A stretch of DNA of 63,510 nucleotides, counting the filler, from Psammoneis japonica (taxonomy: Eukaryota): NCBI GenBank assembly GCA_008632985.1. It is 3 parts of 3 records of this genome, joined end to end, with 100 filler letters (N's around TTAATTAATTAA, not from the genome) between each part and the next. Parts side by side here need not be neighbours in the genome. Positions count along the whole stretch, not along the records: positions 58,442 to 63,510 come from QPGO01000549.1; 2 more parts are not named here. One strand, 5' to 3'. The notes under the pieces were generated by a model. That model did not search any database, was not told the DNA's origin, and saw nothing but the letters and a program-made list of their open reading frames with translations. A program made the position numbers and the translations under genes. Positions 10,568 through 63,510 of this stretch are shown in pieces; position 1 is the stretch's first letter, and each line of letters begins with the position of its first letter.

Positions 10568-10640
10568 CCTAAAACTACCCCGATCCAATGGCTCCGTCAA
10601 CCCTGGGGCCCAAAAAAGTATCTACACTTTATCCTACATC

Positions 10641-26110: not shown

Positions 26111-26639
26111 GGCCATGGAAAGCTTAGAGAGCTCATTTTGGTGTGCAAGTGCAACCCCATGTGGGCTCCATGCATGCATGCGCCATGCACAATTCTGTGA
26201 TGCACCATGCAGACATCATGAAGAGACATGAGGAGTGAAGATGCTGCACTCTACAATGGTGCAACAGCAGAGGCCACCATTTGAAGTTCCCACCACTTCA
26301 TGGCAACTGCAGCATTGTCTCTGCATGACAATGTCCCACAAGTGTGCATGTGCTGCCATCAGAGTGTTTGGACCACATGCTGAGACTTGTTTTGTGGCAA
26401 TTGAAAAAGCAGATGTTGCCAACATGGAAGTTGTTTTTAGGCAGGGTGCCCCATGGATTCAAAGCACAATCTCTGCCAGTCTTCCAAAATGACCAAATCA
26501 TGCATCAGGACCATCTGAAGATCAACGCTTGCTTGGCAGTTCTGAGGCACTCATGGGGGTGGTGCAGCAGCCAAGCTCACAAACCACCATTTAATGTGCA
26601 CCTTGGCAGTGTGCCAATGACAGGAACATTGTGCTGCCC

Positions 26640-27400
26640 AGTGCATCTCCAAATTGCTGATGTGTGCCAGAACATGACATGTTCATCAACAATCATTTGT
26701 GCTGTCTTGTCAAGAAAGACACACTGTGGCAAGGCTGCAAGAAAGTGCTGACAACTCTGCCACATCATCATCACAAAAAAGTGCTGTTGGCTGTCTCATG
26801 CAAGCTTGAACAACAATGTGATGAACTCCTGCAGTTTGAGCAAAACAGGCTGCTCTCCTTCACACCAGCCATCAATGCTCATCTGCAGTCTTGTCACATC
26901 ATGAAAGACACGCTGTTGTGGCACAGCTGTGGGAAAGTGTTGACATGCCACCACCATGTTGTCATTGTGTTGGCACCATTGGTCTCTCCTTCAAATTCGA
27001 ACAAGCCAGTGACTCCCACAATTTGAGCAAAAGTGGTTGTTCTCTTTTTTGTGCCAGCCATCAGCACTCATCTGTGTTGTGAAGAAAGACACCCTGCAAC
27101 AAGGCTGCAGAAAAGTGCTTGCAACACCATCATGAAAGTGGTGCCAGTCTCATGCAAGTTTGAACAAAATGATGAGCTCCTGCAGTTTGAGCAAAATGGG
27201 CCATTCTGATGCACCAGCCATTGGCACTCATCTGTGTTGTCATGTCAATGACAACATTGTGCCATTGCATGGCAGCAGAAAAGTGCTGACAGTTCTGCCA
27301 CCACACTGTCATCATGTTCATCCATTGGCCTCTCATGCAAATTTGGGAGAGCCAATGACTCCTGCACATCAACCATCAGTGCTCATCTGCATTGTTGCAT
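26640..27400. repeat. Degenerate ~160-190-bp tandem repeat, 4-5 copies
   Basis: tcat(c/t)tg..(t)tgt...aaagtg(c/t)t(g) recurs at ~26692, 26879, 27068, 27228 and 27383. Confidence 0.7.
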
Positions 27401-27419
27401 CAAGAAAAATGTGATGTGG

Positions 27420-28620
27420 CATGGCAGTGCACAATCTGCCACAGATTGCACATGTCTGTGTCAGCACACCATCTTGTGGATGCAAAGTGTTGCTGTCACT
27501 CATGCTGACAACACTGGCAGGACCTGCATGACAACCAGTTCTGTGTTTTGTCTTTTTGCCCTTGTTTGACAACAAGTGCCAACTGCCCTGTGGTGTGTTG
27601 GCACTCCTTTTGTTCATGCTTTTGCATTTGTCATTTGAGTGCATCAGCTTCAGCTTTCTGCATCAGGTGTGCCACCACTTGGCACAAAGGGCAATGGACA
27701 GAAGAGCTGCATCATGTCAAAGGCCAATTGTTTGGGATTTGCCCATGCAGTGGCATGTGATGCAGCATGCATGACAGAAGCCATGGCTGAAAGGATGCCC
27801 TTCCCCTTGTCCAACTCCATGTCCCACACTGAAAATGAGCACACCACATTTCCAAGTGTCTGTTGTGTGCACTTTGCAGAAGTGCTTGCCTGTGGATTTG
27901 GATGCACCTGCACATGGCCAGGGAGGTTTGCTTCATGACATTTGCCCTGGTGACTCTGTGACACCTGCATCATGTTTGGCAGACACTTCCACAATCTTGG
28001 CACTTGAATCTTCCTGGTGCCTGGGCAGTCACAGTTGCTGTTCACTGTTGCAGAGTGTCTTTTCCAAATCACTCAATTTGGTGGGACCCCATGTCACATC
28101 CACACACAAGGTCTCCTGCAGGATTCTTTTGGCTGTTTTTTGGACTTCTGACAGCTTCTTGCAATGCTGTGTCTGGCATTTCATCTCCTGGCATTGTTTG
28201 CACTTGACACATGCAGAATGCACTGCAGCACTCATGATGCCAGGCCAGTGGAAGTGATGGGCAGTGGATGTTTCTGCACATGTCTTGCCAGGGCAGTGCA
28301 GCTGCTCATGCACCACTCAGCTGGTGGAGGCATTGTCAACACCTCCAGGCAGCACAACAATTTTGTCTTGATGGCATCCTGGCTGTTGTTGTGTGCCTCC
28401 CCCCACAAAGCACACAGGTGAAGGGTGAACTGGAGTGCAGTGCATTTGGCAAACATGCAGCTGCTCTTTTTGCAGCTGCACTTTTTGATGTCAGCTGCAC
28501 ATTCTGGTCTCCATGCGGGTTTGTGCACAACTTCTTGCACTGATGTTGCCCTTCTCAGATGGTGTCATGTTGGCTCCAACAAGCCCATTTTGTTCACATT
28601 TGCCAACTGCAGCATGACAA
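27420..28620 (-). pseudogene. Gypsy integrase relic, same clade as 52325-57330
   Basis: HCPGKTCAETSTAHHFHWPG..HSACVKCKQCQ matches CHPGETRTEISIAQHFYWPS..HSTCVKCDRCQ; TLGNVVCSFSVWDMELD also matches. Confidence 0.85.
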
Positions 28621-29145
28621 GCAACATTCTTCAGCAGAAAATTGTGTGTGTCAAAGCCTTGTGGCTCACACACTGGTTGTTGTTTCTCTCAAATTTCTGT
28701 CATCTCAGAAACCTTTTTGCACAGGTTCCAGCTCAAGTTCTGCAGGACTCAGAAGAAACTGTTGACAATCTGCATGTCACATCTCTAGACTGCTTCTGTC
28801 CATGCCAGTGGGTTCTCTTCAACACTGCTTCTTTTTCCCTCACTCTGAAAGCACTGCCTCTGTTGTGGATCCCTTTCTAGCGCAAGCATGAGTCATCCTC
28901 CAGTGTCCATTGATCATTCATTTGCTGTGCCTGTTGGCTTTTCTGGGCAAGATCTGGCATTGTTTCTGCATGAAGCCACTGACTGTCAGCTTGTCATGAC
29001 TCTGGATGACTGCTTCCATCCACACCAGTCAGTCTTCAATGCCACCTCTTTTCTTTGCTGTTCAATCAAGTCCTTTGCTCTTCAGGGTAAAAGTGTTGCC
29101 TCTGTTGCAGTCCTTGTGAGCATGAATGTGAGTTCACAGAAAACA

Positions 29146-29554
29146 AAGATGACTGGGTGGAAGAAAACAATGACTCCTTGCTGCTGTCTAAACAGCAGAT
29201 GAGTGCTCATGCAGACAATGTGTTGTGGGAGCCCAAAGACGGGTGTCATGATGTGGGTGCCACTGTCACAATTCTCATGAGCCAAGTGGCTCAAAAGCAA
29301 ACTGCATTGTGTGTCATGTGCAGAACTGAAAGCACACACATTTTTGTGCAACAAACTAAAATCTTGTTCAAATCCTGTCACTCCTCAGTTTGCTTGAGGA
29401 GTCCACAGCAGCAACAGATTCAAAGTCAGATTGACTAAAGGCCTCAGGATCAAAGTCCAAAACATGAGAGGATGGAGGAGGTTCCAACCCTGGGAGCAAC
29501 CCCAGTGTTTGCTGAGGATGTCAGCGGGTTGCAGAACCTTCAAGGAAGTCGAAC
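29146..29554 (-). mobile_element. 3' end of a Copia family C copy: RNase H tail, PPT, and LTR 29380-~29146
   Basis: Homologous to ~45640-46030; LTR starts TGACAGGATTTGAACAAG. Confidence 0.88.
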
Positions 29555-29654: not shown

Positions 29655-32600
29655 CGGTATTCTGCCGCTTAGAGTAACACAAGATGGGTGCTCGTTGGAT
29701 GAATGTCAGGATCCCAGCATGGGACCTGCACATCACACGGCATCCGGCGTGATCAGCATCGACAAAGCAAGTGGTGGTCACTCTAATCCCACGTGCCTCC
29801 AGCATGTTCGGCGGCATTGGTTCAGCTGTGCCAGGATAACATTGTTCCCAATCGCACTTGGTAAAATGACTCTCGTCAAAGACAGGCTCAGTGTCGTCGA
29901 ACACTAGCACAGACTTAGAGTGAGCCTTCAAGTGTGCAAAGATATGGAGCACCTCGTCCAGGTGTCCAACTCATGGTGCTGCTAAGTAGGAGGACATGAG
30001 CGAGACAGCGACAAAAATGTCCACTCGCCCTAGTTCAACTGCCCATCGTAGCACACCAATAAGGCCTTGGTAGCAGTTGGCCGTTTTGGCATTCAACTTG
30101 GGTGAACCGTCCAGTTCAGGCCTGTGTCCCGAGCTCAAGGGCGTTGACGCCTTCGTCGGAAGGCGCCTGTCAGTTTTCTTAAGCTCTAATTCAACATCAG
30201 CTAATGCATTTTTGACATGAAGGTCAGAGGACATAGCCCAGCGTGTCTCACTGTCCGAGTCAGACAGCTGGTGCTTTCTGATCTGGGCACCCAAGTGCTC
30301 TTCCGGCTCGCAGACACTTCCGTCCTTGAGCGTGCACCTAGAGCTCATATAATCCATGACCTTCTGAGGTTCATGGGAGATGCACAACAAGTCGTCCACG
30401 TAGACAAGTACATGTTCCCAACACTTGAAGCCATCCGGCTTAACCGCAGCTCGCATCCAGACATCTGGGTCAGCCTTACAAGACTCAAACCCAGCATCAC
30501 GCAAAGTGGCTGCCATGTGTTCCCTAAATCTTGCACCTGAAGACTTGAGACCATACAAGGCTCGGACAATAATCACCGGCCTTCCCTCGTCATGCTTCCC
30601 AAATTCCAGGCCAGCAGCAGTGTAACACTTTTCCTTAGTGTGTGCGTTCAAGCAGGCATTCTGAACGTCAGCACTCAGGACCTCCACGTCATTCAGAGCT
30701 GCTATAGTGAATGCTATCCTAATGCTGTCACGTGATGCCACGCTGGAATAAGTCGATTCCTTGGGTGGATCGGTTTGATGGCCTCCGGCCACGAACCTCG
30801 CTTTACGTTGGAGGGTGCTCTTGATGTCAAAGATCATGTGACAATCAACATGTTTGTACCCGACCGGTGCAGTATCGTCATCGCGGAATTCGAACGCAGG
30901 CATGACGTTACGCATCTCCTTCTCGACAGCCTTGAACCAGAAGTCAGTCCCCATTCTGTTATCTATCTCCACAGCTTCCTCAACAGATTTTGGGAGTTCA
31001 GTTCCGAACTTATGCATGCGTTTCCAGTGATGCGAGTTGACTTTCTTCAGGATCCTTGACCTGCGATGCAAGACGTCTCGGACCCACCAGTTAAAAGCTG
31101 GTTCACTAGCTACCTTGTTCGCTACAGCGTACTCAGCAACCTCGACTGGATTGGATTCCTTCAAATCCTTGAGAGGAACCCAGGATGTAGTCCCATCCTT
31201 CCATTCGACTTGTGGGTCCCAGCCTACGGTCGTCCTCCTAGGAGCACGCCTGCCAGTCTTAGTTGTTGTGTATCCGTCATCAGCGGTTGCGGCACGGGCA
31301 TCACGTCGGTGATCGACTGTCTCTTTCATAATCTGGCAGGCATTCCCTTCAGAGTCTATCTGAGCAAATAGGTTCTCTGCAATTACGTTAGCAGTGTAGG
31401 AATCAGTGGATCCATCAGGAAACTCCACATCGCACATCCTCGAGTCTAGGACAGGGTTGTCATTCCCAGTGCCAACAGGAACCCCGTCGCCATCTCGTTT
31501 GCGTGCAACAACCCTAGCATGAGACAGCTCGCCTCCACGTGGTAACATGACTTGAGCTGTGAGGTGTTCATCTAGCCCCTCCGGGGTGTGCTCATCAGCT
31601 TCCGGTTTGGAAGCGTCGGGTTCCGAGGGTTCAACGGCATCGTCCCATTCATCCAAGAAGTCGTCAGGGAGTTCAGGGAAGCATTGGCATCCTGTTCCGG
31701 GATGTTAAGCCGTTCGATCAAAGCCTGATCGACTGATGCAAGATCCGCTTGGATTGCCGGAGTTTTAAGGTCCTCTGGTGTGGCCCACACATCTTTCCGA
31801 ATGATGGGTCTGCCTGATTCGGGCAGGAAAATAAATGCCACATCGTCAGTGCAGTTGTCAGCCACTCCGAGCCAACGGCCGATGCACTTCTTCTCATGTG
31901 GGAACTCCGCCACAGGCATGTAGTGACAGACAGGTTGATGCCAATCAAAGAGAGAGAGGGACGAAATATCAGGTGTTGAACCTGTCACCTCTTCTTCTGG
32001 GACTCGTCCTCCCACATCCAACATGCTATTCGCAATCATGCGTCGGATGTCACATGTCCATTTGGCACTATAGGACCAAAGTCGCCTGTGAGCACCAGTC
32101 CGGTGTAGAGTCACGCGGACTCTCTTCTTCAACTCATGAATGGATGCCTTGGCTAGGTTCTGCCAGGGGCTGTGCGGGGTGGACACCTCCTGGTGCATCC
32201 TGCATTCCTTGCAAATCTCCTTGGTCTGGCCTTCCGCCATTTCCGGCGTGCCATCCGACACAAGGACTTGTGTTGCGCCAACATCATGTGTGAATGACAT
32301 GATGGTGTTTGGGTGGTCCTGTTTCCTCTTCCAAGGATAGAACCTGTCACACCCTCTTCCATTGGTAAACACACTTCCTCCTATCTCACCATGTGTCAAT
32401 TTAACCTTCGAAAACATCTGGTCAGAGTAGAAGCGTCCCTTGACAGCAGGGAACTTAAGCCACGGGGCTTTCTTCCGGACTTTCCGTTCGGATGGTGTGT
32501 GGACATTATGGACCCCTGCCTGGGTCGTCACTCTAAGGGTGTTCTTAGCGGCCGTCAGGCCAATGTTCCACCTTTTAGAGAGCATCTCGGGTGTGACAGT

Positions 32601-34946
32601 CGATGCACGACTCGAGGTCGACAGTGCATGCACACCCGTTTCCGCTCGGCACAATCCGGGTGGACATCTGGGTCATGCCGGTCGTGTAGCCCGTCTCCCT
32701 CAATGTCGTTGTGGGAGACATTTACCTGAGCAACCAGGCGGTGATACAGAGAATCGTCGTCATCAGTGTCCATAATGACATTCTCGTCGTGATAGGACGT
32801 TTGATGTGAATGAATTGAAGCGACACACCTGGTCGCATTCATCATCATCGCCTGTCCGTCAGACTTTACTGATCCTTGGCGTGCACCAGCACACACACAT
32901 GCTTCCTCCTTTTGCGCCAGGGCATCAGTAGAAGGCTCCCATCTCAGGGGTGATGTGAGTTCCAGCCGGGGAAGGTTCTCCAGATCCTCCTTTGTCGGCT
33001 TGTGTGAGTCAAAGACTGAAGCAACACCTCGTATGCGCAATGGCATCCTGATCTTCGAGTCAGGGAAAGCAATAGAGTGTGTGCTGTTGGGATCAAACTG
33101 GCGAGGGGTGTCGTGGACAGTCAGTCCATTCGCTCGCAGTTGGTTGGGACACAGCAGAGTGTTAGTCATCCTGTCCCCGAAAAACATAGCCTCATGGACT
33201 AACAGCAGGCATGGTTGTCCATTAGTTGGATCAACCCACACGGTAGCAGCCATGCAAATAGGAATATTTTTCATTGGTGCATGCTCTTCGGAGTAAGGGT
33301 GTACCACGACAGTTCTGTCAACATCAGAGTGCATTACAAAATTGGATCCAACAGCACACACATCAGCGTGCGAGTCCAAATCATTGGTTGCTTCACCATC
33401 TGAATGTCCAGCAGATGACAAAGAGATGTGTGTGTCCTTTAAGAATCGCCTAGATAAATGTATGGTGCCAGCAGGTTTAGCAACAGTCGGTTCTATACCT
33501 TTTAGTGCTGGTGCAAATATTCATTCCTCTTTCTGAGGTTTCTTGTGGGCGCTACGTCCAAACTGGGTGCCTGCATTGGCGGCAGGTTTATCCGACTCTT
33601 CGGAGTCCTTTTGTTCATCAGCAGGTTTAGGTTCAGGCTCGGCAATAGCCACCTTCTTAACAGCGCACGTTTCAGCATCGACCGACTCAGCCTCCGAGGA
33701 CGCAGCTGCAGCTTTGCGTTTCTTCTCGGCTTTCTTGGCATCGCGGAGCTTCTTGACTTGCTCTTGCTCAGGACCGTCAAGAGCGTTCCACTCTTCAATA
33801 GGATAATGGCCTGCCCTGATCCTGGGCTTATCCTTTTTAGGTTGGTGCTTACCGCCAGGGTTTCCGCGCCGGTTGTTGCAGCGTTGGATGGACGCGATTC
33901 CACGAGCATCAGCGTTGCGGTTCTTGGCATTCTCTACCAGAGTCTTCACACACTGCTGGCATGCTTCGAAATCCGCTAGCTTTGTCGGGTCTCCATCCAC
34001 TGCACTCTCACCAGTTTCCAACCTGGGGTCGGAGATGCCCTTGAGAAAGTCAGAGACCTTCTTGGTCTCGGCTACCGGTTCATCAAGCTCGGACAAGTCA
34101 TTGTGAGCCTTTTGATGACGTTGAATGTACTGGTCAAAAGTAAATTGACCCCGTCCGGTGTACTTCGCGGTAGCAATCTATGCACAAGCATGGTTCTTTC
34201 GGGCAGTGGCGGCAGCCGATCCTTCAGCCTGCCTCTTGAGGGCAAAGAAAGCAGCACGACCATCGCATTTGCGATGTTGGAAGGTTTGACAAAAGCCCAT
34301 CCGGGCCCCCCTGTCACTAACTTCTTCAAGAGATCATACAGGCGTTGCCTGTCCTGCATGTGCTGAGCTCCTGCAAGTCGAGTAGTGGCAATGAGGTCTT
34401 CGTCAATGGCAGTGTAGGCAGCAGCCAACATTTCGGCGGTGATGGCTTCATGCTCCCTAATTAGGTAGATAAGGGGTGCGCCGGTAACGGCACTGCGGTG
34501 GTGGCGTAGTTCGGTCTCCAGTGACTCTTGGAAGGTAGGCCAGTCATGTGGATTCTTGAGTTCCACGGCCGTCTTGGTAGCCGATTCGTCGTCCGAGTCT
34601 GCTGACTTGAATTGTTCCAGTTCTGTGAGACGTGCCGTCCATGTCCCAATAACGTCACCAGTAAAGAGAGCAGCAGTCGGCTGTTGATTCTGGGCTCTGC
34701 GGCAGTCAATCCATGTGCGCAGTGCCTTGAACTTGCAATTTGCCAGGTATGGGAAGCGGACTTGGGGGTTAGCGGTGGCATCCACGCTCTTCATAATGCC
34801 CTTAGTCACATCAGTGATCTCTGCCAAAGGGACCTGTTCCAAGTCCTCAACAGTGGTAAAGCCTTGACCGGCTATGTAGGTGCGCGTCTGCGCATTGTAT
34901 CCACAACGCGTAAGACAAGTGGTGTAAAGGCTGCGGCAGCGGCCAT
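29655..34946 (-). mobile_element. Near-complete Copia (CoDi-type) element B: gag-PR-INT-RT-RNase H, frameshifted
   Basis: gag 34946-33521; PR LDSHADVCAVG; INT LVSDG..PHSPWQNLA; VEWKDGTTSWVPLKDLKESNPVEVAEYA; RT KARFVAGGH, ALYGLKSSGA and YVDDLL; RH FVDADHAG and YSKRQNT. INT precedes RT, the Copia order. Confidence 0.95.
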
Positions 34947-35829
34947 GGTGCATCAGTAGTTATTCGCGTTTCGACGCGTGAGCATCCACTTGTGTGAGTG
35001 GAGAAAAGTGAGAAAATGTGTGGTTCTCGTGCCGATTTGGCGGTTTCTACTTAGCGAACCAGCAAGCAGGCAGTGTTACTCCTAAGCAATAATTTCCAAC
35101 AGACATGTATCCACATGTGCAGTGTCTAAACAATTTGATAACGTATTTTGGTTAATCAAATGTATGTGATCAAATAACAGACCTCAATGCAAACAGACCT
35201 CAATGCATAAATCATTGTGTCAAGAGTCAGAAGCTGCTGGGCTGTGACATCCCATTCGTAGTTGTGTGCTGAGCTTCCCACCCGGTCCGTAGAGTTGTGC
35301 TGGCACATCCGAACCCACAGCTTGTGACACTTTAGGTTGCCTGAGAGCAGAGTAACGGGTTTAAAACCCCTGCTGACAAGCCAACTAGTGTTGGTTGGAT
35401 AACCTGATCCTCTCAGAGTTGCCCTCGTGGACCTTGTAGGACTGTAGAAGACCAGCAATCCAGTGTAGATACGAGGCAGTAGACTTGGCGTGCATGAAGC
35501 AGGGCCAGAGTCAAGGGTTTATATCCTGTGTGCGTGAACGCGAGCGGATGTATTGGTCTGTCTGCCAACCAGGGTAGAATCCGCTACAGGGAATCCGGAA
35601 TCTCGGATGCCTGAGAATTCGGGAATTCCTGACCAAACAAACATCCGTTGAATAAATGTGTCCAACGATGGGAGGCATTGGATAAATCCAAATGCATGGA
35701 TTTAATCCAGTGTCCAGCAGCAAAGAAGGTAGGCACACTTCCACCACCAACGGTGTGCGCGTCATCGAATTTTTTTTTCGATGATGATGATGAACGCTCA
35801 ATGGACAAGAATGAGCGAGACTGTTAATC

Positions 35830-50699: not shown

Positions 50700-52325
50700 C
50701 AGGCATCCCCACCGTAGCCGCCGATGATGCTACTTTCCTGCATCTGTAGGCTGTCCGTAGCGACGCTGATCCCGCAGAAGCGCGTGCTAGAAAACGTGAC
50801 TCCTGGCATGAGTCCTACGATGGGCTACAGGAGATCCATACGACTGAGACCGGCGTGACTGGCCATCGTGCACGTGACTCACCTTGCATGAAGGGTACGC
50901 GTAGGATGTACGCAGTGCCGAGTCAACAGGAATCATTCGGGTCCTCAGAGTCATCATGCAGAAATTGTGCAGGAGAGCACTAAAAATAATTATGATCAGT
51001 CTGTCCATCCATCCATGTGCGAATGTCAACTTCTCGGGAAATCAATTGAAATGCTGTCTGATTGACGGCATTTTGATTCACATGGTGAAGGCCAATGCCG
51101 TCAATCAGATGGCATTTCAATTCAGTTCCCGAAAAGTCATTAGCTCTAATCACTCTCTTGTATGACATTGTGTACATTTCTACACGATTTTGTGTTTTTC
51201 CTTATGTAAAACACCAATTATGACCCACGTGACATTTTCGAATGCTTCCTGTTGTGATTGGTTCCGCGGGAGGACTGAAGCTCCGTATGTCCTACTATCG
51301 CGCATGCACGTGCTCTACATAAAATAATCTCATAATTTTCGTGCAACACAGAAAACCTCCACCTAAGTACTTGTGCCCTATTCCTGCATAGGTCACAGTA
51401 ACATTGCTCCCAGTAAGTGCAAGAATGTCTTGATTGGTTAACCATGAAAGTCAGACACATCGCGCACACTACATGCATGCGACAGGCGGTTATTCTGCCG
51501 ATAGCATTTCAACGTCCAGAGAAACGTGAGCTTAAGGAGAATGAGAATCAGACATACAAGCTCCGTATGAACCCGAACGATCCCCGGACAGTCCTACGTA
51601 TGAACTTGCCATTGGCCCTGCCTACTTCTCGGCGCAGACGCCTGAGGAACTGCTCCTTTTCTTAAAGGATTATGACCCTGTGTGCATTGGTCAAGGCATT
51701 GCAACAGGACCCAGAAAGTTTTTACTCACGCGAAGGCTGTTGGAAGTCGAAGCCCTCACTGCCTTTGAGAATGCAGCGGCTGCCCAGAACACAGAGACAT
51801 TGGTGTCTTTCGTGCATTGTGTGGCAGCCGTTGTTAAAAGCATTTTCCCAGAAAGGGCTGCACTGACTCAGAAGCGCTACATAAGGCGTTTTATGAGAAA
51901 GCCGTTAACTGTGAAAATTCGTGAGTATGTTGCCCACGTTGTGGAAATGAACGCGTACATCACGAAATTTCCACCTGTCGAAGATGGTGGACCTGCACCT
52001 CAACCACTTTCAGATGATGAGCTGACAGATGTCATTGAACATGGCACTCCACGTTCTTGGCAGCATGAGCTGAAAATCCAGGGATGGAATCCCTTGGCCC
52101 ACACTACAGCAGAACTTGTGGCATTCTGTGAATGTGTCGAGGAGATAGAAGCGTCAGAAAAGCCGATCGCCGCTGACCCTCAGAAAAATGACCCGATTCC
52201 ACGGAAAAGGCAGGGTAGTCGTAAATGCCGTAACTCGCATGATTTGACATCAGAAGCAGAAAAGCGAACCGCAGTGATGTCAGATGGAAAACGTGGTCAC
52301 GTGTGCATGTTACACGGCGCATTGC
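50700..52325 (+). mobile_element. Gypsy 5' region and frameshifted gag (~51477-52325)
   Basis: TYKLRMNPNDP, RRLLEVEALTAF, IFPERAALTQKRYIRRFMRKP, PRSWQHELKIQGW and CMLHG knuckle start. Confidence 0.85.
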
Positions 52326-54827
52326 CCTGTGTATGTACTAGGCGCTGAAAAGAAGATGTGTTACGACTTTGTCGTTGTGAAAATTATGAGCTAGTTTAGA
52401 GTAGAGAAAGTGGGATCGTGCGAATAGGGAATCTTGCCAAATCCCCATTCGTTCGCATTGGGATCGTATCAAATCGATCGTGCGTTCGCATTGTGGATCG
52501 TGCAAATCAAGCCATCACGCGCCATGCACGAGTGATGTCATCGTGTGGAATCACACTGCCATCGTGGGCCAGACGACAGGCTAGTGTGCTTCACACGGAT
52601 GCTCTCTTAGCATCCTTCTGGAATTGCCTGAGACCTAGAGCCACGCCCTCCTGTGGTCGTGCTTCCCAGGTACGCATTAACAACACTACGTTGCCACGTA
52701 CAAGAGGCTTATGCACGGTCTCGCCATGTTGTCCAGTGGTGAGGCACACTGCACACTCCCCCATGATCAGGGCCGTTAAGTGACAGGATGTCTTACTGGT
52801 GACAGGGTGCAATCTGCCGTAGATTGTACGTGTCTGTCAGCGCTCCGTTCTGGATACGCAACGTGCCATTGTCATATACACGGACAACTCTGGCGGGTCC
52901 TGCATAGCTGTCAGAACCGCATTTAGAGGATTGTTCCTGTTTGATAAGTGCCAATTGCCCTACGGTATATTGGTGCTCCTTGCATTTCTGATTTTCACGC
53001 TTGTTATTTAAGTGGACAAGCTTCTGTTTTCTGGTTTCTATGTACTTCCACTTAGCACGATGGGCAATAGATAAAACCGCATCGCGTCCGAAGACCAATT
53101 GCATGGGACTTGCACGCGTGGTCGTATGTGCCGTAGCTCTAATGGGCGAAGGCTACTGTGGAGAGGATGCCACTCCATGGGTCATCTTCATCCAGTTCCA
53201 TGTCCTGCACTGAAAAGGAACGTACCATGTTACCAAGTGTCTGGGGCACACGTTCCACTATGGCATTCGCCTGTGGATTCCGTTTACTTATGGGTTTCTT
53301 CAAAATCCCATAGTCATTTTTAATCATCTGGCTAAATTCTGCCATAAATTCTGTCCCACGGTCATAAACCACCTGGGTTGGCCACGGATGTCTGCACAGC
53401 CACGTTTGTTCCACGACGTTTGCTACGACGTCTGCGCGTTTCGTAGACACTTCTTTAATCTCGAACCACCCCGGTTGCTGGGTCAATCATTGTGACTGCC
53501 CATAATTGCAAAGTGTCCTTTCCGCGTCTTTGAATTTTATATGGCCCTATCATGTCTGTGCATGGAGTCTCCCATGGAATTATCTCGGCGACCTTTTCTG
53601 GTGGCTTCCCATAACGCTGCGTTCGGCGTTTTGTCTTCTGGCATCGATCGCACTTAACGCACGTAGAATGCACCGTAGACCTCATACTAGGCCAGTAGAA
53701 GTGCTGGGCAATAGATATTTCCGTACGTGTCTCACCTGGATGACACAGTGTCTCGTGGTGCCATTCAGTTAGCGGGATCTGCAATGACTGTGGTACTGCG
53801 ATTTTGTCCTTATGACAGATTAACTGTTGTGATGACCCTCCCCCACGATACGCGCAAATGGAGTAGTCGGACGAGTCCTTAGCTCGTGAGAGTAGGCGCT
53901 TGTCCTTTTGTTGTGCTTTTTGAATGTGCTTGAAGCTAACAGGCAGAGATGCATCGTCTTGCGCGTCTGCATTAAAGGCTTCATGTAAAGGATGACTCGA
54001 TGGAGTGTCTTTTACATCCGGATTGGCCTCAGAAGGCAAGCTGGGTGCTAGCCGAAGGCGACTAAGAGCGTCAGCGACTAGGTTGTGGGTGCCCTTAACA
54101 TAGCGTAATTCGGGACCGTATTCTTCGCATGCCAACCGCCAGCGCATAACGCGCTCGGTATTGAATACTTTGTACGTAAGATTTTTATGATCAGCACATA
54201 TAATTATACGATGACCAAGGAGAATCGTTTGAAATTCTTTCAACGTCTCCACAATGGCGAGTAATTCTCTCTCCGTTGTTGTATAATTTAATTGCGCACT
54301 GTTAAGCTTTCTGCTATAAAAGGCGATAGGTTTATTATCTTGGGACACAACTGCTCCCAATTGACATTTAGAGGCATCGGCATGTATCTCAAAGGGTTTA
54401 TTAAAATCAGGATGTGACAATAAAACATCATCCGATATCACCCGTTTAATGGTTTCGAACGCCTCGTCTTCGACGGACGTCCACTCCCACTTAACAGTCT
54501 CACTTACGAGTCGTGTTAGCGGAGCCAAGACTTCAGAACATCTAATCCATGTGTCACGGTAGTAGTTCACCATACCAATAAATGACCGTAGGTCGCGTTT
54601 ATTGGTTGGGGTCGTGATTCGCTTAATGGCGTCGACTTTATTGGGTGTTGGTCGTATTCCGTCTCTGTTGACCAGGTAACCCAAGTATTCTAATTGGGTT
54701 TGACAGAAGTGAGATTTAGTTGCGTTAACTTTTAGTCCTGCTTTCTGGACCCTCAATAAAACTTCTTCAAGTTTGTTGAGGTGATCTTCATGGGTGCCTT
54801 TCGTCATGACGAGAAGGTCATCTAAGT
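52325..54827 (-). mobile_element. Gypsy 3' half (RT end, RNase H, INT, PPT, LTR 52755-52325), duplicate 1
   Basis: DASK.QLGAV, FYSRKLN, ERELLAIVE, HPG..HFYWP, YDRGTEF and NPQANAIVER; PPT GGGGGAG at 52762-52756. Confidence 0.95.
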
Positions 54828-57800
54828 GCCCTATGTATGTGCCAGGCGCTGAAAAAGAAGATGTGTTACGACTTTGTCGTTGTGAAAATTATGAGCTAGT
54901 TTAGAGTAGAGAAAATGGGATCGTGTGAATAGGGAATCTTGCCAAATCCCTATTCGTTCGCATTTGGATCGTATTAAATCGATCGTGCGTTCGCATTGTG
55001 GATCGTGCGAATCAAGCCATCACGCGCCATGCACGAGTGATGTCATCGTGTGGAATCACGCTACCATCGTGGGCCAGACGATGGGCTAGTGTGCTTCACA
55101 CGGATGCTCTCTTAGCATCCTTCTGGAATTGCCCAAGACCTAGAGCCACGCCCTCCTGTGGTCGTGCTTCCCAGGTACGTGTAAACAACACCACGTTGCC
55201 ACGTACAAGAGGCTTATGCACGGTCTCGCTGTGTTGTCCAGTAGCGAGGCATGCTGCACACTCCCCCATGATCAGGGCCGTTAAGTGACAGGATGTCTTA
55301 CTGGTGACAGGGTACAATCTGTCGTAGATTGTACGCATCTATCAGCGCTCCGTTCTGGACACGCAACATGCTGTTGTCATATACACGGACAACTCTGGCG
55401 GGTCCTGCATAGCTGTCAGAACCGTATTTAGAGGATTGTTCCTGTTTGACAAGTGCCAATTGCCCTACAGTGTGTTGACACTCCTTGCGTTTCTGATTTT
55501 CATGCTTGTTGTTTAAGTGGACAAGCTTCTGCTTTCTGGTTTCTATATACTTCCACTTAGCACGATGGGCAATAGATAAAACTGCATCGCGTCCGAAGAC
55601 CAATTGCATGGGACTTGCACGCGTGGTCGTATGTACCGTAGCTCTAATAGCGAAGGCTACTGCGGAGAGGATGCCACTCCATGGGTCATCTTCGTCCAGT
55701 TCCACATCCTGCACTGAAAAGGAACGTACCATGTTACCAAGTGTCTGGTGTGCACGTTCCACTATGGCATTCACCTGTGGATTCCGTTTACTTATGGGTT
55801 TCTTCAAAATCCCATAGTCATTTTTAATCATCTGGCTAAATTCTGCCATAAATTCTGTCCCACGGTCATAAACCACCTGGGTTGGCCACGGACATCTGCA
55901 CAGCCACGTTTGTTCCACGAAGTTTGCTACGACGTCTGCGCGTTTCGTAGACACTTCTTTAATCTCGAACCACCCGGTTGCTGGGTCAATCATTGTGACT
56001 GCCCATAATTGCAAAGTGTCCTTTCCGCGTCTTTGAATTTTATATGGCCCCATCACATCTATGCATGGAGTCTCCCATGGAATTATCTCTGCAACCTTTT
56101 CTGGTAGCTTCCCATAACGCTGCGTTCGGCGTTTTGTCTTCTGGCATCGATCGCACTTAACGCACGTAGAATGCACCGTAGACCTCACACTAGGCCAATA
56201 GAAGTGCTGGGCAATAGATATTTCCGTACGTGTCTCACCTGGATGACACAGTGTCTCGTGGCACCATTCAGTTAGCGGAACCTGCAATGACTGTGGCACT
56301 ACGATTTTGTCCTTATGACAGATTAACTGTCGTGATGACCCTCCCCCACGATACGCGCGAATGGAGTAGTCGGACGAGTCCTTAGCTCGTGAGAGTAGGT
56401 GCTTGTCCTTTTGTTGTGCTTTTTGAATGTGCTTGAAGCTAACAGGCAGAGATGTCTCATCTTGCGCGTCTGCATTAAAAGCTTCATGCAAAGGATGACT
56501 CGATGGAGTGTCTTTTACATCCGGATTGGCCTCGGAAGGCAAACTGGGTGCTAGTCGAAGGCGACTAAGAGCGTCAGCGACTAGGTTATGGGTGCCCTTA
56601 ACATAGCGTAATTCGGGACCGCATTCTTCGCATATTAACCGCCAGCGCATAACGCGCTCGGCATTGAATGCTTTGTACGTAAAGATTTTTATGATCAGCA
56701 CATATAATTATACGATGACCAAGGAGAATCGTTCGAAATTCTTTCAACGTCTCCACAATGGCGAGCAATTCTCTCTCCGTTGTTGCATAATTTAATTGCG
56801 CACTATTGAGCTTTCTGCTGTAAAAGGCGATAGGTTTATTATTTTGGGATGTGACTGCTCCCAATTGATATTTAGAGGCATCGGTATGTATCTCAAAGGG
56901 TTTATTAAAATCAGGATGTGACAATAAAACATCATCCGATATCACCCGTTTAACGGTTTCGAACGCCTCGTCTTCAACGGACGTCCACTCCCACTTAACA
57001 GTCTCGCTTACGAGTCGTGTTAGCGGAGCCAAGACTTCAGAACGTCTAATCCACGTGTCGCGGTAGTAGTTCACCATACCAATAAATGACCGTAGGTCGC
57101 GTTTATTGGTTGGGGTCGCGATTCGCTTAATGGCGTCGACTTTATTAGGCATTGGTCGTATTCCGTCTCTGTTAACCAGATAACCCAAGTGTTCTAATTG
57201 GGTTTGACAGAAGTGAGATTTAGTTGCGTTAACTTTTAGTCCTGCTTTCTGGACCCTCAATAGAACTTCTTCAAGTTTGTTGAGGTGATCTTCACAGGTG
57301 CCTTTCGTCACGACGAGAAGGTCATCTAAGTACGTTCGAACGAACGAACGATAGATCTTCAAATAAGCCTGACATGCGTTCTTGGAAAATGTCTGGCGAA
57401 TTACATAATCCCATGGGCAACACCTGCATCTCATGCTTGCCCCACGGGAAGATGAGCGTGCAGAGCTTCTTGCTGTCAGTGTCCAATCGGATATGACAAT
57501 GGCCCATGTTTAAATCCAGCGATGTAGCCCACATAAAGCCTTCGAGCTTAAGTAGCACATCTTGGAGATGAGGAATCGGATAAGGCAATCGCTTGATCCG
57601 TTTATTCAGCTCTCTCAAATCATTAAATAAAGCGTACCGTTAAATCTTTCTTCGGTATGATAAATGATGGAGCTGCCCATTGGGATCGGTTAACGCGTTT
57701 GAGAACACCGATACGTGCTAGGCGTTCTACTTCTTTACGTAGCGTAGCTTCGTATGCACGAGGTGCTTTACACGGACGAGCGTGGTGTGGTTCTACACCC

Positions 57801-58341
57801 TCCTTAAGTTGGACATGGTAGGGTTCTCCCTTCCATTCCTCCTAATGTCCCATCAAATAGGGACTCATGGCGTTTCAATAGTGCCAAAAGGTCGTTTTAA
57901 TGAACTATAGAAAATCCCATTGCCCCTCGCGTCATGTCCTCGAGGCAGGCCGGCGCGCACTTAGCGTCTAAAATACGCGAAATCCGGTCGGTTTCCGAAG
58001 ATAAGGCTTCTGGATCTTGAAGATAGAAGGAGGTTTCTACCGTAGCATCTACGTGCCTCATTGGCACTTCTCCACTGACTAATGGCCACTCTATCATCTG
58101 TTTAGAGAAGACAATGTCAATGCCTTGTGTCTCCAGAATGTCACGTCCAATAATCATGTCGTACTTGCCCAACTTTCCGTTGTGTGCGTGGACGGTATGT
58201 TTAAGTTCTGCAGTTTCGGATAATTCTGGTAACCGAAATTTAACGGTGCAGTCGTTAGACGTACTGAACGAGCCTGCTACCGTAGTCCAGTTTGTCTCAG
58301 CCATTGAATGGCTTCGCAGACGTTTACAGCCATCGACTGTC
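54828..58341 (-). mobile_element. Gypsy PR-RT-RNase H-INT-PPT-LTR, duplicate 2 (extends to the gap)
   Basis: YDMIIGRD, RELNKRIKRLPYPIP, LPMGLCNSPDIFQ and TYLDDLL; RT-RH-INT order; LTR 55260-54828. Confidence 0.95.
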
Positions 58342-58441: not shown

Positions 58442-60570
58442 GACAAAGAATTGCTGCAAGTTGGCATTGGCCTTGTTTGCGCCTTGCAGAACAATGACGG
58501 AACTCAAACCAACAACCCATGCATGCCTGTGAATTCCAACTCTCCGCAGGCCGGTGTCATTGCAGAGGAAAACTTGAACTTCTTGCAGAACCTGCAGGAT
58601 GCCAAGTCCAACTGCCTTCGTCTCAAAAGCATCTGACGATCTGCAAAGAAAGACGGAGCAATTTAGACCTGCTGACGTTGCGTTTGACTGTTGCGAAAGT
58701 GACGAGGAAGAAGGTCTTTCAGGCGCCGTTCAGGGTCAACTGCTGGATGCACTCTTGGAAGAAATGGCAGAGCAGCCAGAAGACGATGACATTGGGTTGA
58801 GCGACCAAGCAGTTGTTCCTGCGCATTTGAGCGGCAAACGTGCAAGACAGAAAGGTTCACACATGGGTGGTTGCAAATGCTTGGCAGACATGCACACTGA
58901 CCCACCAAACGAGGAAAGCCAGGTCAATGAACGACAACTTTTTGAGAATCTAGAGGGCGGCGATGACACCGACGAGGAAGACCAGAATGAAGGAGTGCAA
59001 CAACACATCCACAGCAGACCACTGTCAAGAGACGACATTGTTCGAGTGACTGACTAGAACGCAAAGAACAAGAAGGTCGTTTGAGGACATGACAGGTTTG
59101 GAAGAACACGTCGATGTACGTCAAGCAAACGGATCTGCAGCAAGTCGTAGACTGGGCTAGGAAAGCAAGACTGGATGGGCAACAGCAGCGTGCCTTTGAA
59201 ATTCTAGCAGGAACCTTTGTGCTCACTTGCTGCAAAGACGCTCTTCAAGACGAGACGTCACGCAATGGACTTAACAGGAGAAACAGCAGACACGAATTCG
59301 CAACAAACCTTCGCCGATTGAAGAAACTCGTGGAAGTGCAAAGACGCAGAACGTTGCAACTTGTGTGTTTTTTACATGGTGCAGGTGGAAGTGGCAAATC
59401 AACCACAATGGACCTCGTCGTGGAATGCGGAAGAGAGCATTGCTCGCTTGTTGAGCAGCCGTTCACAACAAGCACAATCAGAGTGACTGCACTGACCGGA
59501 GTGGCTGCCACTGTTCTCAAAGGGGACACAATCCACCGAGTTGCATGCCTCATGAGAAGAAAGCAAACAACCGAAGAGCAAATTGAAGCATGGTCAGACA
59601 CGAGACTTTTGGTGGCAGACGATTTCTTTTGCAAGCAAGAGAGAACTAGAAAAACTCCATGAGAATTTAACAGTGTTGAAGAGCGAATTGAGCAAGCCGT
59701 GCGGTGGCATGAACATTGTTTTCGCAGGTGACCTCAGGCAACTAGAACCAGTCGGAAAAGGAGTGAAACCACTGTACAAAGATGCATGTCCCGAGTTTCA
59801 CGAGTGGATCAACTGCTGCACAGAACTTCGTGGTGCGCGCAGGTTCAAAGACGATCCATCATGGGGAAAACTGCTCAAGAGATTCCGCACTGGTGAGATT
59901 GCAGTTGACGATGTAGAGCACATCAACGAACGAGCAGTTCAGAATGAAGATGATCTGCCCAGTGACCTCCGCCATGCCACGTGCGCAAATAAGGACAGAG
60001 ATGCAATTGACACTGGCCCATTCGAAAAAAGAGTAAAAACACTGCATGGAAGAGATGGAGACGTCCTTGACTCAATGTTGATTTTCAGTGACGACTTGCA
60101 GGTGCAGAATGGCACGAGACTCTGCCAACCATTTCCGGTTTGCAACAGCTTCTGGAACAACTGTGGTGAAGGAGACGTTGTCATGCAATCAGGAAGAATG
60201 GATCCAGTCTTACGAATTTACAGAAGATGCAGAGTCATGACACCTTTCAACGAAAATGCAGCAAACGGTCAAGCAAACGGAACGCAAGCCACTGTTGACA
60301 AGGTCGTTCTCAAACCAGGACAGGAACCAAGACTGGTGACTTTAGACAACAACATTGGCATTCCTGCTGCTTGCCAGTCAGGTAGACCACGTTGCATTGG
60401 AACACTGCAACAAAAGCATCGACCCCGCGAAGTTTTTAGTTGAGCCAAAAACAAATGCTTTCAGGGCTTGCATCGCCAAGCCCAGCCCAATTTTAGAAGA
60501 AGGCGACAAACAAAGGCACACTTTCCAACTGAAGGCAACCCAGCTGCCGTTTGTCATCAACAATGCCACT
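58442..60570 (+). pseudogene. PIF1-family SF1B helicase, probably Helitron-like, frameshifted near 59625
   Basis: FLHGAGGSGKST, VTALTGVAAT..GDTIH, LLVADD(IS), GGMNIVFAGDLRQLEPV, RRFKDD, ANGQANGT and QLPFVINNAT. The Rep/HUH domain is not visible. Confidence 0.85.
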
Positions 60571-61240
60571 NNNNNNNNNNNNNNNNNNNNNNNNNNNNNN
60601 NNNNNNNNNNNNNNNNNNNNNNNNNNNNNNNNNNNNNNNNNNNNNNNNNNNNNNNNNNNNNNNNNNNNNNNNNNNNNNNNNNNNNNNNNNNNNNNNNNNN
60701 NNNNNNNNNNNNNNNNNNNNNNNNNNNNNNNNNNNNNNNNNNNNNNNNNNNNNNNNNNNNNNNNNNNNNNNNNNNNNNNNNNNNNNNNNNNNNNNNNNNN
60801 NNNNNNNNNNNNNNNNNNNNNNNNNNNNNNNNNNNNNNNNNNNNNNNNNNNNNNNNNNNNNNNNNNNNNNNNNNNNNNNNNNNNNNNNNNNNNNNNNNNN
60901 NNNNNNNNNNNNNNNNNNNNNNNNNNNNNNNNNNNNNNNNNNNNNNNNNNNNNNNNNNNNNNNNNNNNNNNNNNNNNNNNNNNNNNNNNNNNNNNNNNNN
61001 NNNNNNNNNNNNNNNNNNNNNNNNNNNNNNNNNNNNNNNNNNNNNNNNNNNNNNNNNNNNNNNNNNNNNNNNNNNNNNNNNNNNNNNNNNNNNNNNNNNN
61101 NNNNNNNNNNNNNNNNNNNNNNNNNNNNNNNNNNNNNNNNNNNNNNNNNNNNNNNNNNNNNNNNNNNNNNNNNNNNNNNNNNNNNNNNNNNNNNNNNNNN
61201 NNNNNNNNNNNNNNNNNNNNNNNNNNNNNNNNNNNNNNNN
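60571..61240. other. Assembly gap (N run)
   Basis: Ns. Confidence 1.
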
Positions 61241-62047
61241 CAGTCATCATGTGGAAACAACGGTCGCCCAAGGATGATTCAACCATGGAGGAGCTAAAGG
61301 CAGCATGTGCAGCGGCGATTCCACAGCGGTCGGGGAGATTTTTCACCGAGGAGGAGATGGCGGAGCAGGAGAAGGAGCAAGCAAAGTCCCTTCAGAAGAA
61401 GCATGGCCAGAAAGAATGGAATTGAGCAAATTGCAAATGACCATTTAGCAAAGACAACAGCATCAATGTGCAAAATGCACACACATGGACTTTCACTTGA
61501 GCCGCCGCGGATTGAGTGTGGCCATGAATGAGGACCAACTGTTTGGCAAAGAAACTGCAACAATGCGCAAATTTCGCACATTTCCACACTCACTTAATCC
61601 AACGCAGCTTGCCTTGGACAACATCAACATGCACAACTAGACAACATCAACACACACAGACAGCCTCATGAAACCTCACAGAAGACAGAATGGTCAGAAG
61701 CAAAACAACCAGCACCACGCTCTAACGCATGTTGGTCATGTCGCGTGGGTCGCGCAAAAGTGCGCACCGAAATGACCGTCATGTGTTGTAATTAATTCGA
61801 ACGCCCGGCGCAAAATGCAGCAAAATGATTGGTGCAGGCAATCGTCATGGCTCTATTTTCTGACAGTAGCGAGGGCGGCAATCCAAAATCTTTCGGTTTC
61901 AGACTTCGATCTAGAGAGTTCCACCTAAAAAAGAGGAGGAACCAATTTGTTTCCCGCCATATCACGCGCAAGTGGATGATGATTCGCGCGGAGCCTCACA
62001 TCTCTCCACCCTCGCTCAGCCGCGCAAAGCCAGAAAATCAAACAACC

Positions 62048-62623
62048 ATGGCCACTTGCGTTTGTAGTTTGAGCGGCGAGACGGGTTCTTCCGTATCAGG
62101 GGTGTTGAAACTTGTACAGTCAAGTGAAGATGCACCCACCACCATTGAAGGCGAGCTTCGAGGCTTGACACCGGGAAAGCACGGCATTACAGTCAATGTG
62201 TACGGCGACCTTTCTCAAGGCGCTACTACATGCGGAGAGATTTTCAACCCATTTGGTGAGAATTATATTGCGGTCTGTGCGAATCGTGCTTGTCTTCATC
62301 ATTGTGTCGTAGCTTATGATCCTTTTGTGTTTTGTTTCTGAACAGGCAAATCACACGGATCACCACAAGACGATCCGAGCAATCGCATGGTGGGTGATTT
62401 GGGAAACATTGACGCTGGATCGGATGGAAAGTGTGCCGTGTCGTTGTCGGATTCACTCGTGAAATTGTTGGGGCCCCATTCCGTCATTGGAAGGTCGATT
62501 GTCGTGTATACTTCTGCGGATGATGGTGGACGTGGCGGCCAACCGTCGTCACTTACAACCGGCAACACTGGAACACGAGTAGCTGCCGGTGTGATTGGAA
62601 TTGCCGCAGCTGCGGCGCCATGA
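62048..62623 (+). CDS. Cu/Zn superoxide dismutase-fold protein, 161 aa; exons 62048-62255 and 62346-62623; copper ligands absent
   Basis: GLTPGKHG, GD, FNPFGKSHG, VGDLGNI, GPHSVIGRSIVV, DD, TTGNTGTR and GVIG. The phase-1 intron GTGAGA..AACAG (62256-62345) restores the frame. Confidence 0.93.
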
Positions 62624-63191
62624 GGTGGGAGAAACGATTGTTTAAATAAGGATCAACATGGTAGACTTGAAAGGGTTTTGTCTGACATTATGGCTACTGT
62701 CCTGAAGCAGATTAGAATAAGGAGTACTTTTTAGCGAGTGAGAATGGCCACCAACGGTCTGATTTATAAATCGTCAAGAACCCGGCCGCCAAAGCTCTGC
62801 ATCCAACATCAAATGTTGGATTCTTTTGCACTGATGTGAGCAGGTAGTTTTGAAACTTTCAGTACTCGCGTCGCATTGTTCAACGCCTTACTCTTAGGTC
62901 CTACACCAGCACTTTCACAGTACATCAGCCCGAGGCCTTCCTCGCCTAGATTCTTCATAGAGGTGGCGTTTCAAACAACGGGCTTGTTTGGGCTCGTCTA
63001 GAAAAAAAATCGAGAGGCACTGTCCATACAATTCTTTCTCCCCTCCGCAAGGAAATTCCCCCCAAAGGATTCGCCTATTCTTCTTCTTGTTGGTTCTCGT
63101 TTTAACGCAGAGCGGCGGCGTCTCCATTGTTGACAGCGCTAAAGTGAGCAAACTGGTTCGCGGGAGGAACGTAGTCTTCTCGATGCCCACC

Positions 63192-63510
63192 TTATATTGC
63201 TGTCCGCATACTTAGACTGGCATCCACATACAAAGGTTTCGGGCAGGCTTGAAACTGTGGATTGAATCGTTTCGAGCGGCACAAAACGTGCACGCGGCAT
63301 CTCCAGCTAAAGATAAAGGTGCGAATGGAGTCACCAAGATTCTTGAGAGAGTCGGCATTCACCGCAGTGTCCCCGTCAAGACTGCTGATTGCCAGAATTC
63401 CCCATGTGGCATTGACCTCCGTCATTCTCAAGGAAAAACACGAAAGTCCCGTTACTTTGTCAGTAAAGGAATCAAACCGATCAATAAATTTAAAGCCCAC
63501 CTAAATGTAC
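63192..63510 (-). CDS. Possible 3' part of a convergent host gene running off the window
   Basis: Open frame with normal composition; no recognisable motif. Confidence 0.3.

Follow-up and report, generated by a model that had tools for sequence, protein, structure and literature searches.

The closest described counterpart of the decay analysed here comes from mutation-accumulation lines of B. natans, in which two stretches of integrated viral DNA received 231 of 302 nuclear point mutations, a rate of ~6e-7 per site per generation (bioRxiv 10.64898/2026.01.13.699255). According to the main text of this preprint (Mettrop et al.), 230 of these 231 were A>G/T>C changes, all at TpA; only some lines were affected, and the de novo rate of this hypermutation was ~1000-fold above background. 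The B. natans genome also carries 124 TpA-poor, CpA+TpG-rich clusters (cut-offs: Rho TpA <=0.43, CpA+TpG >=1.52), its TpA-poor genes are enriched in reverse transcriptase (RT) and DDE domains, and an ADAT2-like DNA adenine deaminase has been proposed (bioRxiv 10.64898/2026.01.13.699255). Here we describe a similar footprint in a window of 63,510 nucleotides from Psammoneis japonica (assembly GCA_008632985.1), in particular at positions 58442-60570, which hold the relic of a Helitron transposon. This dead Helitron and the other repeats of the window were hit by a DNA-level process turning TpA into TpG or CpA, which is independent of CpG decay; on balance, we consider it probable that this process is that of B. 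natans and is due to a deaminase.

The window shares with B. natans the A>G/T>C changes confined to TpA, the TpA-poor footprint and the enrichment of RT and transposase sequences; in B. natans the process strikes DNA of foreign or selfish origin and leaves ordinary DNA unaffected. Unlike in B. natans, where viral inserts and de novo mutations were described, we deal with long terminal repeat (LTR) elements, a Helitron and tandem arrays, and with fixed differences. TpA-only hypermutation of foreign DNA is not novel in itself, having been reported in the 2026 preprint. Our additions beyond the text covered are the flank rule together with the identity of the changed pair, the independence from CpG loss, alongside which CpG decays separately, and the extension of the targets to ordinary transposons. 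Within its main text, supplements not included, the terms CpG, flanking, trinucleotide, context and retrotransposon do not occur in the preprint (bioRxiv 10.64898/2026.01.13.699255). Apart from it, searches of the literature on CpG and TpA in transposons and on A-to-G hypermutation yielded only papers on fungal repeat-induced point mutation (RIP).

RIP is similar in being a transition-only, dinucleotide-preferring decay of repeats in place, with copies mutated differently. In the accounts of RIP drawn on here, C:G>T:A changes occur mostly at CpA, making TpA and AT-rich DNA, whereas in the window the change runs from TpA to CpA/TpG and G+C is ~0.48. The decay of CpG through 5-methylcytosine (5mC) is alike in that a self-complementary dinucleotide turns into TG/CA on both strands approximately an order of magnitude faster than other sites change; it differs in that our target is TA, CGN codons are intact and there is a flank bias that CG loss lacks. 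TadA and ADAT2-3 act on an adenine that follows U/T (tRNA U33-A34). An ADAT2 has been described to deaminate DNA, and the preprint proposes one for the signature; on the other hand, no such gene is present in the window and, in the text consulted, the amphioxus enzyme prefers GAA and TCG, while a preference for a 3' pyrimidine (T at least as much as C) is undocumented. APOBEC3 and ADAR likewise represent deaminase editing against selfish nucleic acids, but they act on single-stranded cDNA or on RNA in a strand-asymmetric, clustered fashion, whereas the changes described below are symmetric and not significantly clustered.

The window joins three assembly pieces (1-29554, 29655-58341 and 58442-63510) by linkers of the form N44-TTAATTAATTAA-N44. 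Transposons are abundant in it (two Ty1/copia elements, one Gypsy element and the Helitron relic; Table 1). The observed/expected ratio (O/E) over the whole window is 0.37 for TA, 0.63 for CG and ~1.48 for CA/TG, with sharp local variation. The Helitron relic (2129 bases) retains 22 TA (O/E 0.17) and 92 CG (O/E 0.73), with CA at 1.42 and TG at 1.61, and both this relic and the 17-kb block that we call decayed pass the B. natans cut-offs. The 295-amino-acid frame of the relic is matched by 63 proteins at E<=0.001 (1589 candidates), the best being 52% identical; many of these homologs are ~1900 amino acids long and combine Helitron_like_N, PIF1 and DUF6570. Four homologs align by tblastn colinearly with 58443-60570, over approximately residues 1104-1822, with repeated switching between frames 1, 2 and 3, and the stretch is therefore a frameshifted helicase fragment. 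Its ends are cut by the start of the piece and by an N gap, beyond which the same repeat continues, with no protein match at 61241-61990.

This repeat belongs to a large family. Contigs of the DNA run X1 were mapped at 80% likeness (993 in total: 317 at >=99%, 271 at 95-99%, 296 at 90-95% and 109 at <90%). Their summed depth, which is not the same as copy number, was ~2300-5500 over 58442-60570 and 1000-6700 over 61146-61990, compared with 47-57 over the gene for Cu/Zn superoxide dismutase (SOD) in the same piece. The ~100-fold difference marks a high-copy family that extends to ~61990. Since X1 contigs match exactly at depth >1000 (e.g. 58858-59050 with 0 differences), the sequence of the window did not arise through misassembly; it should be noted, however, that the assembly may itself have been built from X1. 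We considered the best 40 of 70 X1 variant rows, of which 15 represent the mismatching end of one contig (62008-62044) and 25 fall in the high-depth repeat. Among these 25, 18 make up nine adjacent TG<->CA dimorphisms, six are single TA<->TG/CA changes, one is a transversion and none is a CG change.

The deficit of TA is mutational and not compositional, because conserved codons polarised by outgroups reveal a loss of Tyr. Homologs were aligned to the DNA by tblastn, and a codon was counted as conserved where a minimum of 10 homologs (20 for copia) were aligned and 60% or more of them had the same residue. We used 63 homologs for the Helitron relic, 120 for both the Gypsy element and its relic in the decayed block, and, for the two copia elements, 144 of 150, the six above 2200 amino acids being dropped. 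In the Helitron relic only two of ten conserved Tyr are kept (both TAC), the lost ones having become Cys (six TGC) or His (two CAT), compared with 249 of 340 other conserved residues (251/350 for all residues; Fisher p=9e-4). The same holds for Copia A, where one of nine conserved Tyr is kept (six now His, two Cys; 164/202 for all residues; p=6e-6) and the conserved YVDD motif reads HVDD, and for Gypsy, which has kept 31 of 59 (losses including 11 His and eight Cys; 868/1098 for all residues; p=3e-6); other conserved residues are kept at ~73-85%. The Gypsy relic in the decayed block has no conserved Tyr left (0/14; five Cys, three His, six other; 160/303 for all residues), and Copia B has four of six (one His, one Trp; 43/88 for all residues). 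These Tyr codons, as well as the Gypsy duplicates considered next, display the A>G/T>C change at TpA, giving TpG/CpA, that is a feature of hypermutation in B. natans.

Comparison of paralogous copies leads to the same picture. Pairs found by self-BLAST are 67-97% identical, which rises to 84-100% once A/G and C/T are merged. We examined 15 of 43 such pairs (one Gypsy duplicate, three of the decayed block against Gypsy and 11 others), the remaining 28 representing mostly register shifts within the same tandem arrays or repeats internal to the decayed block. The Gypsy pair is a head-to-tail internal tandem duplication of 2.5 kb within Gypsy (52323-54829 and 54827-57333), with 94.9% identity, or 99.6% with transitions masked, and 119 transitions against six transversions. 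The transitions include 42 TA<->CA/TG and 27 CG<->TG/CA changes, 34 located in 17 adjacent CA-versus-TG pairs, and 14 others; divergence since the duplication is almost confined to TA and CG. Two conserved Tyr positions read Cys in one duplicate and His in the other, so that the CA-versus-TG pairs represent independent resolution of an ancestral TA. Positions of TA differ between the duplicates roughly 10-20 times more often than other positions, a figure that describes fixed differences and not a de novo rate. The decayed block contains Gypsy relics at 25351-26109, 27421-27899 and 28003-28423, which are 84-88% identical to the Gypsy copies with transitions masked; they have CA/TG at 64 Gypsy TA sites (one TA is kept) and at 67 Gypsy CG sites, with only three and two cases in the reverse sense in a tally of transitions. 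Of all repeats in the window Gypsy has decayed least (TA O/E 0.82, CG 1.03), and it served both as the source of young events and as the baseline for the density of NTAN tetranucleotides (97 YTAR, 169 mixed and 70 RTAY among 336, where Y is a pyrimidine and R a purine).

As to the relationship with CpG, the initial annotation had proposed that TA decay does not follow from 5mC deamination and appears to act faster or earlier, and both statements hold. The counts, filed under the heading INDEPENDENCE FROM CpG LOSS, were taken at conserved Arg positions. Six CGN codons remain in the Helitron relic and one is lost (CAG); Copia A has kept 13 of 14 conserved Arg, with nine CGN remaining and one lost (CAA); in Gypsy 41 remain and three are lost (TGY or CAA). 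Losses of TAY and CGN codons thus stand at 8/10 versus 1/7 in the Helitron relic (p=0.015), 8/9 versus 1/10 in Copia A (p=0.001) and 19/50 versus 3/44 in Gypsy (p=5e-4; Fisher tests). No element of the window has lost CG without having lost TA, and Copia A as a whole stands at O/E 0.21 for TA and 0.77 for CG. Three conserved Tyr sites, compared with no Arg CGN codon, were lost identically in both Gypsy duplicates, which fits an earlier start of TA loss, although these numbers are small. Taken together, the data support a TA loss that is faster or earlier than CpG loss and not tied to it.

Nor is the TA loss accompanied by G:C>A:T hypermutation in the Helitron relic and Copia A, which keep six of seven and nine of ten CGN codons. 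The decayed block is different: only four of 19 conserved Arg are kept in its Gypsy relic, where one CGC remains, and it includes 2194 consecutive bp without TA and 1518 consecutive bp without either TA or CG. CpG decay of the 5mC type was found only in this block and not in the Helitron relic. We read it as a second, separate process, complete only at 12.2-29.5 kb and devoid of flank bias, which would most simply be deamination of 5-methylcytosine.

For the influence of neighbouring bases, each event was assigned to the strand on which A becomes G. The rate in the young Gypsy pair depends on the base 3' of A (A 4/92, C 15/73, G 7/68, T 16/81), amounting to 31/154 for pyrimidines versus 11/160 for purines (odds ratio 3.4, p=8e-4), while the base 5' of T is without effect (12/81, 8/68, 12/73, 10/92). 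Therefore, it is the changed pair that adjoins the pyrimidine (TAY>TGY, equivalent to RTA>RCA). Survivors lead to the same rule. The initial annotation had counted 12 YTAR among the 22 TA left in the Helitron relic, and this count is exact (six CTAG, four TTAG, two TTAA; eight mixed and two RTAY make up the rest); it had also noted the same bias at 12-29 kb, where the 73 survivors of the decayed block are divided into 47 YTAR, 26 mixed and no RTAY (p=3e-10 and 4e-8 against Gypsy). The YTAR excess over Gypsy is modest in the Helitron relic alone (binomial p=0.01), reaches p=0.007 in the continuation of the repeat beyond the N gap and is not significant in Copia A (19/50, p=0.1). Densities in the decayed block relative to Gypsy are 0-0.03 for ATAN/NTAT, 0 for GTAC, 0.09 for CTAC, 0.11 for GTAA, 0.14 for TTAA, 0.19 for CTAA and 0.23 for CTAG, which fits a per-strand survival order of G > A > C > T after TA.

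Scaled to CA+TG in the decayed block without its less decayed part at 23.0-25.75 kb, surviving TA number 31/728 in YxxR, 17/1750 in mixed and 0/833 in RxxY contexts, implying a ~8-fold difference per strand; CG on the same denominators (10, 33 and 13) has no bias. Among the best 40 of 70 variant rows of the high-copy family, four of five polymorphisms in mixed contexts obey the rule, and the nine dimorphic sites are flanked by R..Y in five cases, R..R in three and Y..R in one. Overall, a pyrimidine after TA speeds its loss ~3-8-fold per strand, TAT being lost at least as fast as TAC and both faster than TAA and TAG. Of the 5'-TAY target put forward in the initial annotation, the preference for TAY thus stands, whereas YTAR proved to be slower rather than spared, and the preference does not appear in 11 older pairs. 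A flank rule of the form R-YR-Y common to CG and TA was also considered and abandoned, as for CG it disappears with the CG-rich 23.0-25.75 kb excluded and counts scaled to CA+TG.

The two strands are affected equally. Outcomes at TA are TG and CA in ratios of 24:18, 30:34 and 43:46, the local TG/CA skew of the decayed block is binomial (chi2 58.3 over 64 windows of 250 bp), and runs tests detect no significant clustering. The outcomes are oppositely skewed in the two Gypsy copies (16 TG to 6 CA versus 8 to 12). Strand-coordinated bursts were considered on this account and set aside, there being only a weak hint of them (runs 9 versus 9.7 expected and 7 versus 10.6 expected). What we observe, then, is a DNA-level A:T>G:C change at TpA that affects both strands about equally, proceeds site by site and is faster than CpG decay. 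The DNA level rather than the RNA level is indicated because a Helitron, tandem duplicates and arrays have all been affected, and because TG and CA outcomes are symmetric.

This process may be the same as the TpA-only hypermutation of integrated foreign DNA in B. natans. Most likely, adenine in DNA would then be deaminated to inosine and read as G at the next replication, and the agent might be a deaminase of TadA/ADAT2 type, or another enzyme deaminating nucleic acids, that targets silenced or selfish DNA. Several points weigh against this explanation. Its chemistry (enzyme, modification, inosine) we infer, and a modified thymine fits equally well, because A>G on one strand is T>C on the other. 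In the text consulted, the only ADAT2 examined for activity on DNA, that of amphioxus produced in E. coli, favoured GAA when acting on adenine and TCG when acting on cytosine, rather than TA. We equate the process with that of B. natans by its signature, and the B. natans targets are single-copy viral inserts without a CpG signal, whereas here we have repeats, one block of which is also CpG-depleted. The flank rule is absent in the 11 pooled older pairs (45/178 versus 44/196), one of the five informative family polymorphisms among the best 40 of 70 variant rows breaks it, YTAR also decays (to 0.14-0.23 of its Gypsy density in the decayed block), and the bias of the Helitron relic by itself stops at p=0.01. 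Finally, a sparing of non-selfish DNA may be reflected in the SOD part (1.5 kb, TA O/E 0.53) and at 4.5-10.5 kb (TA 0.60, CG 1.03), but for unique DNA it rests on 1.5 kb, which is too little.

A rather doubtful explanation, but one that deserves attention, is a heritable base modification at the palindromic TpA (5-hydroxymethyl- or 5-formyl-uracil, of base J type, or of adenine) that would mark silenced repeats, TA>CA/TG being its miscoding footprint in the way that CpG decay is that of 5mC. The target is self-complementary and both its strands are hit equally and independently, as in CpG, and the decay looks like a slow site-by-site approach to equilibrium, having reached a TA O/E of 0.06 in the old block. 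Furthermore, 5-hydroxymethyluracil (5hmU) is reported to be enriched over the repeats of one dinoflagellate, early work, as far as the sources covered go, gave TA and TC contexts, and the title of one paper ties 5hmU to transposon silencing. On the other hand, a base-resolution map in Breviolum gave no 5hmU motif in the text covered, and the B. natans mutations occurred in some lines only, in bursts that reached 45 in a line (bioRxiv 10.64898/2026.01.13.699255), a pattern in keeping with a switchable enzyme, although it may also reflect an epigenetic switch. Dinoflagellate-type 5hmU was dropped as the lead explanation in view of that mapping and of the canonical short GT-AG intron of the SOD gene; searches for the dinoflagellate spliced-leader motif and against Rfam gave no match.

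It is improbable that one process removes both CG and TA (RIP-like, acting on self-complementary YR steps), with their uncoupling reduced to a difference in rate. Both dinucleotides do end as CA/TG, both are lost at 12.2-29.5 kb, their rates after the Gypsy duplication are comparable (42 TA versus 27 CG events), and an ADAT2 is described as able to deaminate A and C in DNA. Nevertheless, the ratio of TA to CG loss varies widely between elements, TA loss is biased by R/Y flanks while CG loss in the same DNA is unbiased, and the hypermutated regions of B. natans gained TpA changes only (bioRxiv 10.64898/2026.01.13.699255).

Still less credit can be given to errors of DNA polymerase eta (WA motif) during patch repair of deaminated 5mC, by which CpG would be restored and nearby A:T mutated. 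Such a scheme permits TA loss without net CG loss, and this polymerase prefers TA>AA. A likeness to it, suggested in the initial annotation, was not borne out, as AA>AG changes show a small excess only: seven AA<->AG stand against 42 TA changes in the Gypsy duplicates, and because AA>AG is so minor, the polymerase is disfavoured. The decayed block has R-T-Y>R-C-Y at 50/190 versus 25/157 in reverse while TA is saturated there, with Y-T-Y at 30/198 versus 32/187; outside TA, then, A>G also occurs weakly ahead of a pyrimidine, at a rate nowhere near that of TA. TAA is moreover the slowest TA context (4/92, unpolarised), and, to our knowledge, a strong dependence on the base 3' of A is not a feature of polymerase eta.

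RNA A-to-I editing of transposon transcripts by ADAR or ADAT, fixed by reverse transcription, is extremely unlikely: RNA adenosine deaminases typically favour U on the 5' side (bioRxiv 10.64898/2026.01.13.699255), but Helitrons are DNA transposons, the same kind of difference separates in-place tandem duplicates and arrays, TG and CA are nearly equal on the coding strand (eight Cys and 11 His in Gypsy) and family copies resolved one site both ways. The view that there is no mutational process at all, only codon usage or selection, or base-calling or assembly errors, can practically be dismissed, for although TA is mildly under-represented in most genomes and stands at O/E 0.53 in the unique DNA here as well, conserved Tyr are replaced (YVDD>HVDD), frames are broken, paralogs have TA versus TG/CA, contigs match exactly at high depth and a 2194-bp run is free of TA.

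Table 1. Repeats, genes and composition blocks located in the window (strand given where assigned)
Feature	Positions	Strand	Evidence or composition
Copia elements with RVT_2	336-2633 and 29971-31704	-	Pfam
Copia A: Ty1/copia pol ORF 339-2633 with flanking internal repeats	1-4400	-	RVT_2 E=8.6e-35
Copia B: second, more fragmented copia element of intermediate decay	29971-34959	-	RVT_2; TA O/E 0.51, CG 0.72
Gypsy element	52323-58341	-	Pfam RT_RNaseH, Integrase_H2C2, rve
Decayed block, 17 kb	12200-29554		TA O/E 0.06, CG 0.10, CA/TG ~1.9; includes Gypsy relics
Helitron Rep/helicase fragment, frameshifted, PIF1-type helicase part	58442-60570	+	Pfam AAA_30, PIF1
Same high-depth repeat beyond the N gap	61241-61990		TA O/E 0.26, CG 0.86; 8 of 12 TA are YTAR
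Cu/Zn superoxide dismutase gene with flank, two exons, intron 62255-62344	61991-63510	+	Pfam Sod_Cu on two ORFs

The SOD gene (62.05-62.62 kb by Pfam) is the sole clear host gene of the window and provides the low-depth control. CG in its part of the window is at O/E 0.97 and its NTAN are unbiased (12 YTAR, 27 mixed and 14 RTAY). A contig of run X2, with a depth of ~48, joins 62254 to 62345, skipping the intron with its GT..AG ends; it follows that X2, labelled 'DNA?', behaves like a transcriptome and that the SOD gene is expressed, its transcript being spliced. Its predicted product contains ...SNRMVGDLGN..., in which Met occupies what we take to be the position of a metal-binding His in Cu/Zn SODs.

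Some features of the less and more decayed DNA are also worth recording. Three long stop-free frames of 490, 232 and 660 codons lie on the plus strand at 4172-8234, in DNA of near-normal composition (TA 0.60, CG 1.03). None of the three belongs to a Pfam family, the 660-amino-acid frame has no homolog among 8000 scored candidates, and two of the frames have no sequence match in PDB; they could represent an unrecognised mobile or viral gene set spared TA decay. Two tandem arrays at 9924-10568 and 10637-12178 (units of ~212 bp and ~330 bp) form the border between near-normal DNA and the decayed block. TA is already at 0.44 and CG at 0.67 in the second array, and the drop to near-zero TA and CG takes ~500 bp, around 11.5-12.2 kb. 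Within the decayed block no credible Pfam match was obtained for 69 ORFs, surviving CG are concentrated at 23.0-24.75 kb (42/101) and surviving TA at 24.25-25.5 kb (20/73). Younger insertions or local protection of the DNA might account for these clusters. The CG survivors show an excess of CCGG and CCGC/GCGG.

Similar proteins occur elsewhere. Three copia polyproteins, P0321 (2061 amino acids), P0316 (611) and P0280 (919), from ENA metagenome contigs, Logan and an NCBI contig of 47 kb, contain 0.05-0.8% Tyr. They have kept 0/13, 0/10 and 1/12 conserved Tyr, respectively, mostly replaced by Cys or His, together with most conserved Arg, and therefore the same TA-only footprint is present outside this genome. 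The metagenome locus L001, a relative of a Tyr-free copia protein, was examined as a further case and rejected, as it is not decayed (TA O/E 0.41, many TAC/TAT). The decay removes TAA and TAG stops along with Tyr codons, and as a result long false ORFs persist in dead elements, such as the 765-codon copia frame and the Tyr-free database proteins of 2061 amino acids; these mislead gene prediction and similarity searches. In Copia A the dead gene (339-2633, minus strand) still shows an unbroken frame of this length, and a long ORF is here no sign of function. Masking of transitions recovers 84-100% identity between copies.

With respect to genome biology, one may tentatively speculate that TpA is a 'second CpG', i.e. 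the site of a symmetric mark or lesion on both strands that would target silenced repeats of every class (LTR elements, Helitrons, arrays) in addition to integrated viruses and would read the base after A (T-A-pyrimidine). B. natans would then be the tip of a general defence or heterochromatin system mirroring RIP, and the Tyr-free copia proteins might be its footprint in other eukaryotes. An A:T>G:C process that acts on DNA and is aimed at a single dinucleotide of selfish elements is a novel type of genome defence in eukaryotes, first reported in 2026, and through the flank rule the enzyme or modification behind it can be specified in concrete terms.

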